64,000 bases of DNA from Desulfobacterales bacterium. GTDB taxonomy: Bacteria; Desulfobacterota; Desulfobacteria; Desulfobacterales; UBA5616. The position numbers and the translations under genes are program-made. The notes beneath the pieces are model-generated. The model worked only from the letters and a program-made list of their open reading frames with translations, was not told where the DNA came from and made no database searches. Shown here piece by piece: positions 6,409-46,915 of this stretch (position 1 is the first letter of the stretch; every line of letters starts with the position of its first letter). The stretch covers positions 32,001 through 96,000 of the forward strand of contig JAWODC010000040.1 of the NCBI GenBank assembly GCA_046483495.1, given 5' to 3'.

Positions 6409-7056
6409 ATGAAAAGAGGATTGACCCTATTGCTCATTCCGGCACTTCTATGGATGCTGGTGGGCTGTGCCGGCCAAACGCGACAGCAGCGGGGAACCGC
6501 AACGGGAGCTGCGGTAGGGGCCGGCGTCGGTGCAATTTTAGGTCAAGCTATCGGAAAGGATACCCAAGGGACACTGATGGGGGCCGGAATCGGTGCGGTA
6601 TTGGGCGGCATCGCGGGCAATCAGATCGGCGCTTATATGGATCGCCAGGAACAGGCTCTCCGGCAGGCAGTAGCGGCCTCTGAAGCGGCAAGTATTCAGC
6701 GGGAACAAGATATTCTCACTGCAACATTCAAATCCGAAGTCATGTTCGATTTCGATTCCGCCGCGTTGAAGCCGGGCGGGTATACAGAAATCGCCAGGGT
6801 TGCCGACGTGTTGAACAATTACCCGCAGACCATGCTGCATGTTCAGGGGCATACCGATGCCACCGGTCCGGAGGACTACAACATGCGGCTGTCCCAGAGA
6901 AGGGCGGAAGCCGTCAAAAATGCGCTGATTCAACAGAATGTGGATGAGCGCAGGATTACCGCAACCGGGTATGGCGAATCGCAGCCGATATCTTCCGAGC
7001 CTGCTGTGAACCGGAGAGTCGAGATCGTTATCACCCCGATTCGTGCCCAAACCTGA
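6409..7056 (+). CDS. OmpA-family lipoprotein with glycine zipper (YiaD-like)
   Basis: Lipobox LVGC, GAAVGAGVGA zipper, FDFDSAALK, GHTD, LSQRRAEAV, NRRVEI. Confidence 0.92.
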   Translation: MKRGLTLLLIPALLWMLVGCAGQTRQQRGTATGAAVGAGVGAILGQAIGKDTQGTLMGAGIGAVLGGIAGNQIGAYMDRQEQALRQAVAASEAASIQREQDILTATFKSEVMFDFDSAALKPGGYTEIARVADVLNNYPQTMLHVQGHTDATGPEDYNMRLSQRRAEAVKNALIQQNVDERRITATGYGESQPISSEPAVNRRVEIVITPIRAQT

Positions 7057-7081
7057 TTTGCGCTTACAAACTGTTGCTAAA

Positions 7082-7121
7082 AAGAATCGGCTGAAATGAC
7101 AAACGGTTTCAGCCGATTCTT
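7082..7121. terminator. perfect 15-bp inverted repeat between convergent genes (possible bidirectional terminator)
   Basis: aagaatcggctgaaa-N10-tttcagccgattctt; the right arm overlaps the stop codon of the minus-strand gene. Confidence 0.55.
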
Positions 7122-8182
7122 CTCCAGGTTGACCTATCCGGGCCATCTTCTACGGCAATACCGAAGGATGAGAGCGAATCCCGGACGGCATCGGCCAGAT
7201 CCCACCTTTTTTCCCTCCTGAGTTCCGACCGTATGTCGAATAGAAGTTCGATAACGGTGTCGGGGAGTTCACCTTTTTTTTCGATTCCTTCGGGTGGTTC
7301 GCCGGCACCGATAAACGGCTCCGGTTGCGGTATGCGGGGAGAAAATCCTGCTGTGCCGGCATCATCATTACTGCGCCGGTGATCAGGTTCGAGGCACGTA
7401 AGATCGAACCGGTCTTTCGAGTGAAATTGCCTTTCACCGTCCTCTTTTTTCAGGGTTACCGTTCCCGACCCGCCGACAGTACAACAATTTTGTGCAAAGT
7501 CGAGCGTTAAGGCCGTATATTCGTCAATACCCACGATAACGGTGGAAGCCGGCAGCTGTTTTTCGAGCACTTGCAGCCGAGGGGCGCCCATATAACAAAA
7601 TCGGGTGTCATGGGTGCCGCCCTCCTTGTTGTTCCAGTGGGGAATGATCACCGGTTCGAGTCCCCATGGCGCTAAAAAATTCAGACCGTTCATCCAGTGC
7701 AGCGGCTCACCGACCTTGTATATTTCATATACCGGAAGAGCAAAGGCGCCTATCGCAATGGAAGCCGCACTGGCAAGAACGATGTGAGCGCCGCCTGCCA
7801 ACTGCGACTGCAGGGTATTTAAAATGCGCGTGTTGCGCCACTGCCGGACCGTATACGTGGGGCTTCCCGGACCCGCGAAAATGTAGTTCGCCCGCAGAAT
7901 TTCGGTCAGGGCTTTATTCTCTTTTTCCGGGGGTATGGCGGATGATGTGTATGAAGCGATGGCAAGGGGCATATTGAAGTGTTTTTTAAAATACCGGACG
8001 GCCTTTTCCGAAATTTCATCGATATTTAACTGAAAGCCGGCCGGAGTATCGATGAAGACGGGCCGAACCGGCGGGATGATGTTTTTCATCACCCGCCGAT
8101 GGACTTTGCTCATGGGGGGGGACATTTCCCCTGATCCGATGAGTGTGATACTCCCCTTTCGTGGGTCTTTTTTATCCTGCAT
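7109..8182 (-). CDS. peptidase S51/cyanophycinase-like hydrolase fused to a CysRS-type C-terminal anticodon-binding domain
   Basis: LIGSGE, YIFAGPGSP, ASAAS, IIPHW, GIDEYTAL; C-terminus RSELRREKRWDLADAVRDSLSSFGIAVEDGPDRSTWRR. Confidence 0.8.
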   Translation of the reverse strand: MQDKKDPRKGSITLIGSGEMSPPMSKVHRRVMKNIIPPVRPVFIDTPAGFQLNIDEISEKAVRYFKKHFNMPLAIASYTSSAIPPEKENKALTEILRANYIFAGPGSPTYTVRQWRNTRILNTLQSQLAGGAHIVLASAASIAIGAFALPVYEIYKVGEPLHWMNGLNFLAPWGLEPVIIPHWNNKEGGTHDTRFCYMGAPRLQVLEKQLPASTVIVGIDEYTALTLDFAQNCCTVGGSGTVTLKKEDGERQFHSKDRFDLTCLEPDHRRSNDDAGTAGFSPRIPQPEPFIGAGEPPEGIEKKGELPDTVIELLFDIRSELRREKRWDLADAVRDSLSSFGIAVEDGPDRSTWRRIG

Positions 8183-8355
8183 GGCATTATATGTTAGCAG
8201 ACAGGAGAAAAACCGGCAATGCTTTGCCAAAAATCACCTTTTACCCGTATTCCGATAGGTATAGATGACCATTGAAAATAGCCTTATTCGCTCGTTGGCG
8301 GCATTTTCGGTTCGGCTTTTGCGCCACGGCTCGTAGGACTGAACCGCTCGGTTTT

Positions 8356-45649: not shown

Positions 45650-46915
45650 ATGGCGGAACTGATCCTGTACAACCAGTTGGTCAAGGGAATGCATGCTTTC
45701 ACCCCCCGCGAAAAGGGGCGCGTCAAGCTCTTTACCTGCGGACCCAGCGTATACCGGCGCCAGCATCTGGGAAATTACCGTACATACCTGTTTGAAGACG
45801 TTTTGCATAAATACTTGGAATACAAAGGCCTCGAGGTCAATCGGGTGATCAACTTCACCGACATCGAGGATAAAGCCATTCGAGAGGCCCGAGAGAAAGG
45901 CACCAGTGTCGAAAACCTCAGGCGACCCGTAGAAGAGGCTTTTTTCAACGAATGCGCTATGCTGAAGATTCGCCTGCCGGAAAATATTCCGCGCGCCTCC
46001 ACAAGTGTGCATTCCGCCGTGGACCTTATTGAAAGCCTGATCGACAGGGGCCATGCCTATTGGCATAAAGGGGAGGCTTTTTATGATCCCTTGACCTTTC
46101 CGGGCTTTGGAAGGATTTATGGCCTGGACATGAGCCGCTGGCCTGAAAAGAAGATCCGTTTCCGGCAGGACACGTATCCCGGCCAACGGTGGAACTTGGG
46201 TGATTTCATTCTCTGGCACAAACAAAAAAATGTCGAAGCGGAACCCTTCTGGGATACCGAAATCGGCCGCGGCCGTCCGGCCTGGAATATCCAGGATGCG
46301 GCGATGATCCGGAAGCAGCTCGGATTCGAGATCGATATCCACACCGGCGGCATCGACAATCTTTTTCGGCATCATGACTACACCATGTCCATCATGGAGG
46401 GTGCATCCGGAAAACGGTTCTGCCCTTGGTGGCTGCATGGCGGTCACCTGCTCGTAAACGGCCGAAAAATGTCAAAATCAACTGGGAATGTCGTCTACCC
46501 TGAACACTGCATGGATCAGGGATTTGCACCCCGGCATATCCGGTTTTTCCTTCTGTACGGTCCCTATCGGGACAAGCTGGATATGCGCGATTCCGTTATG
46601 CATGAACGGGCCGGATATCTGGATCGCGTGCGGCGCCTGGTTCACAGACTATGCACCGGCGTTGCCGAACGCGCCGGGAAATGCGATGCACATCCGGCCG
46701 CGGATGTAAAAGCCGCCTTCGAGTCGGGCATGGACAACAATCTCGATGTTGCCGGAGCTTTCGATGCAATGACGGATCAGCTGATCCGGGCGGTGCATAT
46801 CGATGCGTCGACAGGCATCGACTCCCGGAAGCGAGAGGCGCTTCGCACTGCACTATCGGATGTGGATAAGGTGTTTTGCGTACTCAACATCGACTCGTCA
46901 GACGGGATGAAATAA
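45650..46915 (+). CDS. cysteinyl-tRNA synthetase-like protein (divergent paralog, lacks the anticodon-binding domain)
   Basis: TCGPSVY, HLGN, NFTDIEDK, DFILW, GRPAWNIQD, DIHTGGID, KMSKS, DALR-like region. Confidence 0.88.
   Translation: MAELILYNQLVKGMHAFTPREKGRVKLFTCGPSVYRRQHLGNYRTYLFEDVLHKYLEYKGLEVNRVINFTDIEDKAIREAREKGTSVENLRRPVEEAFFNECAMLKIRLPENIPRASTSVHSAVDLIESLIDRGHAYWHKGEAFYDPLTFPGFGRIYGLDMSRWPEKKIRFRQDTYPGQRWNLGDFILWHKQKNVEAEPFWDTEIGRGRPAWNIQDAAMIRKQLGFEIDIHTGGIDNLFRHHDYTMSIMEGASGKRFCPWWLHGGHLLVNGRKMSKSTGNVVYPEHCMDQGFAPRHIRFFLLYGPYRDKLDMRDSVMHERAGYLDRVRRLVHRLCTGVAERAGKCDAHPAADVKAAFESGMDNNLDVAGAFDAMTDQLIRAVHIDASTGIDSRKREALRTALSDVDKVFCVLNIDSSDGMK

Follow-up and report, generated by a model that had tools for sequence, protein, structure and literature searches.

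PepE, a peptidase of family S51, has a catalytic triad of Ser120, His157 and Glu192, and MccG of the same family cleaves aminoacyl-nucleotides (PMC9239234). The active site of CysRS lies ∼70 Å from the anticodon (bioRxiv 2025.02.14.638259); positions 427, 432, 436 and 439 are mutated sites of its anticodon domain, and R427 contacts G34 (PMC13449415). Archaeal ThrRS-ed combines a hydrolase with an anticodon-binding domain, and is an architectural precedent for the protein described here (PMC11295145, PMC8762117). YbaK clears Cys from tRNA-Pro, and the review text consulted names no factor that edits tRNA-Cys on purpose. Orf11, a Fem-like enzyme, transfers Gly from tRNA onto an amino sugar in antibiotic synthesis (PMC12945691). 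In a published survey, the complete mshA-D set was confined to Actinobacteria (PMC6282198).

Here we describe a gene that joins an S51-like hydrolase to a CysRS anticodon-binding domain. It lies in a window of 64,000 nucleotides, the whole stretch of DNA that was analyzed, from a Desulfobacterales bacterium. The original prediction had read it as a serine hydrolase targeted to tRNA-Cys for the removal of mischarged, modified or peptidyl groups.

The fusion gene and its setting

The features of the gene and its product are as follows:
7109..8182, minus strand: S51 hydrolase–CysRS anticodon-binding-domain fusion gene (P0001), 357 aa, ATG at 8182
7388..8161, minus strand: S51/GATase1-like domain, residues 8-265, with family-specific conserved segments 45-53, 104-110, 150-158 and 184-202
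7769..7771, minus strand: Ser138, predicted nucleophile, aligning with Ser120 of PepE (1fy2)
7637..7639, minus strand: His182, predicted catalytic base, aligning with His157 of PepE (1fy2)
7520..7522, minus strand: Glu221, predicted catalytic acid, aligning with Glu192 of PepE (1fy2)
7265..7387, minus strand: Pro-rich linker, residues 266-306, 7 Pro in 41 residues
7112..7264, minus strand: CysRS anticodon-binding domain (CysS_C), residues 307-357

A TTG further upstream, at 8230, is an alternative start and would extend the protein to 373 aa. All motifs quoted in the original prediction were found in the protein (ASAAS at residues 137-141, IPHW at 180-183, GIDE at 218-221 and the tail at 317-355), and an AlphaFold model (mean pLDDT 87.5) confirmed its two-domain observation, with an ordered S51-like domain and a CysRS-like domain separated by a low-confidence linker.

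The gene is solitary in the window; it converges with an OmpA-family gene, and a YhhN gene lies upstream of it. A promoter scan at the gene returned nothing above chance and no full site. A perfect TATAAT is present at 8186-8191 on the minus strand, three bases ahead of the ATG at 8182, and a Shine-Dalgarno sequence is not clear; judged from the sequence, the start is possibly leaderless or near-leaderless. Contigs from four RNA runs in three studies overlap parts of 7040-7474 at 99% identity, strand and level being unreadable from contigs, so that they are not taken as evidence of expression.

The hydrolase domain

Profile matches of the N-terminal domain are weak, with 13.7 bits on Pfam S51 (PF03575; gathering cut-off 23.9) and 13 bits on the cyanophycinase model TIGR02069 (cut-off 126.6). 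The structural model has the S51/GATase1-like alpha/beta fold, with a Foldseek E of 1e-14 to 6nqc (Z 26.4, 235 aligned residues, rmsd 2.7) and further matches to the cyanophycinase CphB (Z 23.6) and PepE homologs (Z 16-21). The Ser, His and Glu proposed originally as catalytic candidates fall on the triad positions of PepE in a profile alignment to 1fy2. Each of the three is kept in 120/120 close homologs (119 of the 120 matches listed, with the self-match P0002 excluded, plus the query), and among representatives at 50% identity Ser138 is kept in 148/149 aligned rows, His182 in 150/150 and Glu221 in 143/148.

The invariant Glu153 is a possible counterpart of Asp135 of PepE, which we take to be the amine-binding residue; its spacing from the serine is equal, but the profile alignment has a gap there. 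The segment after the nucleophile, inspected for an Asp-selecting pocket whose residues were taken from general knowledge, is likewise gapped relative to PepE, and literature confirming these PepE/CphB pocket residues was not found, a term search of PMC11078827 included. None of the known editing families (INS/YbaK, AlaX, DTD, CP1) matched in Pfam at E up to 1, and none is among the fold matches listed for P0001. An ESM Atlas search returned solely clusters of the fusion family.

The linker and the CysRS-like tail

The linker is predicted to be disordered, with residues 275-302 under pLDDT 50. Most relatives have a form of ∼420 aa, in which a helical segment of ∼60 aa takes the place of the Pro-rich linker. 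That this middle segment is the DALR bundle of CysRS is unproven: just the last 74 columns align, and DALR_2 is weak in 2/24.

The likeness of the tail to the C-terminal domain of CysRS, already part of the original prediction, was upheld by Pfam CysS_C on the last 50 residues (28.3 bits, cut-off 23), by CysRS chains in the PDB (E 1e-8 to 1e-4) and by superposition on 1u0b (47 columns, rmsd 1.3 Å, 49% identity). Aligned to 1li5, residues R318, R322, W327, D331, R334 and D346 correspond to R423, R427, W432, D436, R439 and D451 of E. coli CysRS; that R423 and D451 take part in anticodon contact is our assumption. The tail was found in 139 of the 150 best representatives at 50% identity, where R318 is conserved in 139, R322 in 137, an aromatic residue (W/F/Y) at 327 in 137, D331 in 139, R334 in 139 and D346 in 138, while adjoining positions are variable. 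It has no counterpart in the other 11, several of which look shortened or frameshifted.

Synthetase functions are missing from the protein. The CysRS model TIGR00435 aligns with residues 303-355 alone (21 bits against 340), the class I CysRS catalytic domain (PF01406) has no match at the fusion gene, and no MshC model match, and with it no CysRS-like ATP-dependent catalytic domain, was obtained in P0001. Besides a complete CysRS and one tRNA-Cys(GCA), the genome encodes a tail-less paralog and a fusion of cysteine synthase to CysRS; since the full enzyme and the paralogs are encoded elsewhere, the tail of P0001 is not the cell's synthetase. Targeting of P0001 to tRNA-Cys through predicted anticodon reading is well supported, and this part of the original prediction gained from the conservation of R322, W327, D331 and R334. 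Its peptidyl substrates lost ground: peptidyl- or N-acyl-tRNA is less likely because Pth is present in the genome.

Two further CysRS-like genes were observed. The tail-less paralog (window 45650-46915, plus strand, 421 aa) lacks an anticodon-binding domain, differs from CysRS in its zinc-site motifs (WNIQD and HHDYT against WHIEC and HHENE in CysRS), and scores 289 bits on cysS and 160 on MshC. We rejected the idea that P0001 supplies it with an anticodon domain in trans, as a third CysRS-like match occurs in just 2/61 genomes of the host's order (G000, G055) and is absent from 13 other fusion carriers of the order. The other is the cysteine synthase-CysRS-like fusion (773 aa; G000:C21:1082-3403, minus strand; L002); open frames of comparable length are present in most genomes of the order.

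Extent of the family and its loci

Homologs made up 7992 of 8000 scored candidates, a count that includes tail-only matches. This number, and the presence of the tail in 139/150 representatives, argue that the domain fusion is not due to chance. The fusion family is real, widespread, large and uncharacterized, and its members are named ‘hypothetical protein’, ‘cyanophycinase-like exopeptidase’ or ‘peptidase E’ in databases. There are also S51 relatives of the 6nqc type that have no tail, four of them next to tailed genes; they lack the conserved loops of the tailed family's catalytic domain. Two homologs (P0175, P0146) carry S51, CysS_C and a C-terminal GT2 glycosyltransferase domain in one protein. 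Apparent N-terminal fusions in L031, L079 and L103 were rejected, the long frames being GC-rich read-through and not domains.

Neighbors within 6 kb of the fusion gene were counted in the best 80 of 596 genome loci. An Acetyltransf_6/FemAB-like GNAT was present in 33/80, an MshA-like glycosyltransferase in 28/80, a PIG-L deacetylase in 24/80, two Gfo/Idh/MocA oxidoreductases in 22/80 and 19/80, a HAD phosphatase in 15/80, a glyoxalase-II-like hydrolase in 10/80 and inositol-3-phosphate synthase in 5/80. All 33 GNAT loci belong to a single clade of 48 loci, mostly from deltaproteobacteria. In 33/48 of this clade the fusion gene heads a GNAT-MshA-PIG-L operon, and a GNAT or Gfo/Idh/MocA gene lies directly downstream in 42/48; the gap between fusion and GNAT is a few tens of bases in L041, L046, L070, L077 and L084. 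Outside the clade, Chloroflexota included, the neighbors are varied (79 candidate neighbors scanned).

The best 80 of 514 metagenome loci from a distant subgroup lack GNAT, MshA-like, PIG-L and Ino1 genes, and 46 of them have an alpha/beta hydrolase upstream of the fusion. This conserved gene lies directly upstream (L195:330-1247, plus strand, and 45 other loci of L156-L235; also L127 and L135) and may represent a second partner system. Four Anaerolineae loci (L011-L014) have a pair of genes for an APH-like kinase and a HAD phosphatase after the fusion gene, and the pair recurs in the L088 thiol cluster; the two are candidates for the inositol kinase and MshA2 roles.

Co-occurrence in the host's order

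The fusion occurs in 14 of the 61 genomes of the host's order. MshA-like genes are present in 14/14 carriers and 2/47 non-carriers, the Fem-fold GNAT in 14/14 and 3/47, and PIG-L in 12/14 carriers and two other genomes; these genomes are kin and not independent, and much of the signal is operon linkage. MshD-like genes were found in 6/61 genomes. No MshC-like score was obtained in the 61 genomes, the best (320 bits) belonging to a full-length CysRS.

In the host's own genome, the thiol genes are on another contig than the fusion:
G000:C11:59749-64544 (L091:7750-12545): thiol cluster with GNAT, MshA-like, MshD-like, PIG-L and glyoxalase-II-like genes

Ino1 and BshC were not found in this genome (96.7% complete assembly). 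Its fusion gene and those of three family relatives group with Anaerolineae sequences, apart from the operon clade, and an AU test on 34 of 124 rows, with the group defined after viewing a quick tree, rejected a single clade for the two (p 0.0098). This position suggests a second acquisition, whereby the fusion was acquired separately into genomes that held the operon without its first gene.

Candidate thiol ligases in Chloroflexota

We also examined 151 Chloroflexota genomes, with the fusion in 41, MshA-like genes in 108, the GNAT in 50, MshD in 16 and MshC-like genes in 83. MshC-like denotes a CysRS paralog with an MshC model score of 339 bits or more, a threshold chosen after seeing the scores, none of which reached the curated cut-off. 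The six MshC-like proteins inspected are all ∼390-405 aa without an anticodon domain, and share what we take to be an MshC-type N-terminal motif.

Among the 108 MshA-positive genomes, eight have both GNAT and MshC-like genes, 38 GNAT only, 59 MshC-like only and three neither, counts that include G091 (flagged unpublished; without it 59 becomes 58) and rest on sets compiled by hand from tables. Fem-fold GNAT and MshC-like ligases are thus nearly mutually exclusive in MshA-positive Chloroflexota. Unlike the GNAT, the fusion is not complementary to MshC-like genes, which occur in 20/33 MshA-positive carriers and 47/75 MshA-positive non-carriers. It is present in 13/38 GNAT-only and 16/59 MshC-like-only genomes, and six of the 41 carriers have neither MshA, GNAT nor MshC-like genes. 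Its association with MshA is weak (33/41 carriers against 75/110 non-carriers, p 0.16). The possibility that P0001 replaces MshC was downgraded, as the fusion occurs with GNAT, with MshC-like genes, or with neither.

The loci L150-L155 contain tail-less CysRS paralogs of ∼400 aa from Chloroflexota that have MshC-type motifs, score just below the MshC cut-off and are mostly without MshD. Because MshD is mostly absent beside these paralogs, the Chloroflexota thiol is suggested to be mycothiol-like and non-acetylated.

The operon GNAT and a predicted thiol route

The GNAT model (pLDDT 94.5) best matches the aminoacyl-tRNA-dependent FemX, FemA, Sbb17 (with streptothrisamine) and MprF; Fem-type enzymes score Z 17-21, against 13.2 for MshD, and the GNAT profile had no sequence match in the PDB. 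The near-exclusion with MshC-like genes and the Fem-type fold make the GNAT the likelier cysteine ligase, and it is likely a Cys-tRNA-dependent stand-in for MshC. The MshA-like glycosyltransferase scores 310-353 bits on MshA (cut-off 462.5) and 108-141 on BshA.

Candidate functions of the fusion protein

The two-domain layout, the integrity of the triad and of the anticodon-contact residues, and the association with mycothiol-like genes in the order come directly from the computations; tRNA binding, ester hydrolysis and the substrate are what we infer. Our favored reading, held tentatively and at slightly under an even chance, is that P0001 works as a stand-alone deacylase of tRNA-Cys, disposes of chemically damaged Cys-tRNA and is coupled to thiol-stress genes. 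Binding of the GCA anticodon of tRNA-Cys is predicted for the C-terminal domain, the 41-residue linker would span the ∼70 Å from the anticodon to the CCA end, and Ser138-His182-Glu221 would hydrolyze the aminoacyl ester when the tRNA-borne cysteine is chemically damaged. The thiol of Cys-tRNA is open to oxidation, alkylation and aldehyde condensation. Candidate substrates are oxidized Cys (sulfinate or sulfonate), S-adducts and aldehyde-derived thiazolidines; the sulfinate and sulfonate would resemble Asp, the residue selected by PepE and cyanophycinase. The connection with thiol genes may be a shared thiol-stress duty: Cys-tRNA-Cys is predicted to be spent on thiol synthesis via the Fem-fold transferase, so that a clean pool would serve both the ribosome and this enzyme.

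We regard a deacylase as the simplest reading because an intact triad is joined to a tRNA-Cys reader that has no fixed partner and is favored where thiol chemistry matters. The release of Cys from tRNA in arsenite-treated mammalian cells is a weak hint (PMC3302863). Sep-tRNA-Cys is an unlikely substrate, since SepRS was not found in the host's own genome (24 bits, cut-off 381). Several points weigh against a deacylase. The link to thiol synthesis in the order is tighter than a general quality-control factor requires (14/14 carriers, 42/48 loci), and the separate acquisition of the host's gene fits a pathway role equally well. The enzyme would have to spare cognate Cys-tRNA, which counts against it. 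To our knowledge, CysRS is regarded as needing no editing, and a literature search brought up no account of cells being troubled by damaged Cys-tRNA-Cys.

The link of the fusion to the mycothiol-like thiol operon makes a transferase role conceivable. In such a relay, which we judge unlikely but worth weighing, a Ser138 acyl-enzyme would take Cys from Cys-tRNA-Cys and hand it on to an amine, for example GlcN-inositol, so that P0001 would be a tRNA-dependent ligase of a mycothiol-like pathway. Its place at the head of the operon in 33/48 loci, the company of MshA-like (14/14) and PIG-L (12/14) genes in carriers of the order, the lack of an MshC-like score in the 61 genomes and of a detectable BshC in the host's own, and the two GT2 fusions all speak for it. 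MetA is a transacylase, has a GATase fold and gave a weak fold row for P0001. But MshC-like genes are present in 20/41 Chloroflexota carriers, 25/38 GNAT-only genomes do without the fusion, and the ligase slot is already filled by a GNAT that is nearly exclusive with MshC and folds like FemX and Sbb17/Sba18. The fusion might instead serve this GNAT, with the anticodon domain capturing Cys-tRNA-Cys for it and conferring specificity for tRNA-Cys while the S51 site proofreads. The two genes abut within tens of bases in several loci, and Fem enzymes have been proposed to contact the acceptor stem (PMC12945691). We nevertheless consider a presenting subunit quite improbable: 31 of 50 GNAT-positive Chloroflexota lack the fusion, 22 of 41 carriers lack the GNAT, and the two lie on separate contigs in the window's genome.

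The chances seem similarly slim for an amidase that senses tRNA, in which uncharged tRNA-Cys on the tail would, in cysteine shortage, activate release of Cys from a stored thiol or Cys-dipeptide. Characterized S51 enzymes cleave small-molecule amide bonds (PMC9239234), and 33/41 Chloroflexota carriers have an MshA-like gene, but this is barely above the background of 75/110 (p 0.16); moreover, a flexible tether gives no obvious readout of charging state or allosteric signal, and the operon already has an amidase-family gene, PIG-L. It is very improbable that P0001 is an ordinary dipeptidase whose tail is vestigial or does not concern tRNA. In favor of this reading are the tail-less relatives of the 6nqc type, four of them beside tailed genes, and the 11/150 representatives with no tail, although several of these 11 seem truncated or frameshifted. 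Against it, near-invariance of the six anticodon-contact positions extends to proteins less than 50% identical, and the tailed family has conserved loops of its own in the catalytic domain that are missing from tail-less relatives.

If the deacylase reading holds, the enzymes acting on aminoacyl-tRNA would gain a new fold (S51/GATase), and tRNA-Cys, regarded as needing no quality control, would gain such a step. For sulfate reducers and Chloroflexota, for which the published survey lists no complete mycothiol pathway, the operon would point to an unrecognized, tRNA-dependent way of making a low-molecular-weight thiol. We see an even balance of chances for the wider proposal that many anaerobes (deltaproteobacteria, Chloroflexota) make a mycothiol-like thiol from Cys-tRNA-Cys via a Fem-fold transferase and not MshC, and that P0001 is the first serine hydrolase dedicated to tRNA-Cys, a peptidase-fold enzyme able to read the GCA anticodon and to do one of two things, repair damaged Cys-tRNA or relay its cysteine via a serine acyl-enzyme. 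Neither a paper on an S51-CysRS anticodon-domain fusion nor one on the tRNA-dependent synthesis of a mycothiol-like thiol without MshC was found in a literature search that scarcely covered subscription journals.

Comparison with known systems

P0001 shares with peptidases S51 (PepE, CphB, MccG and 6nqc of an acI actinobacterium) the fold (Z 16-26) and the Ser-His-Glu triad, but it falls under the Pfam cut-off, has SAA in place of SAG at the elbow and has its own loops (45-53, 150-158, 184-202). It also has a predicted tRNA-binding domain, unlike all the solved S51 matches. The tail resembles the CysRS C-terminal domain (1u0b; CysS_C) in sequence, fold and anticodon-contact residues, whereas the synthetase catalytic domain is absent, and a complete CysRS and two paralogs are encoded separately in the genome. 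The architecture of hydrolase and anticodon-binding domain is that of archaeal ThrRS-ed; the catalytic fold, however, appears unrelated to ThrRS-ed and to YbaK/ProXp, AlaX, DTD and CtdA, and the predicted tRNA differs from that of ThrRS-ed.

Fem-fold aminoacyl-tRNA:amino-sugar transferases (Orf11, Sba18, Sbb17), like FemX/FemA and MprF, resemble the operon GNAT and not P0001; Orf11 uses Gly-tRNA, whereas the GNAT is predicted to use Cys-tRNA. The associated genes score best on the mycothiol models MshA (310-353), Ino1 (406-410) and MshD (95), but all are under the curated cut-offs and the deacetylase is nearer BshB. The predicted pathway also differs in the lack of MshC-like genes in the order's 61 genomes and of Ino1 in the host's own genome, and in the Fem-fold GNAT in the ligase slot. 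As far as sequence and structural models indicate, P0001 would express the idea of a tRNA-directed hydrolase on an unrelated fold, tied in its lineage to a likely tRNA-dependent thiol pathway.
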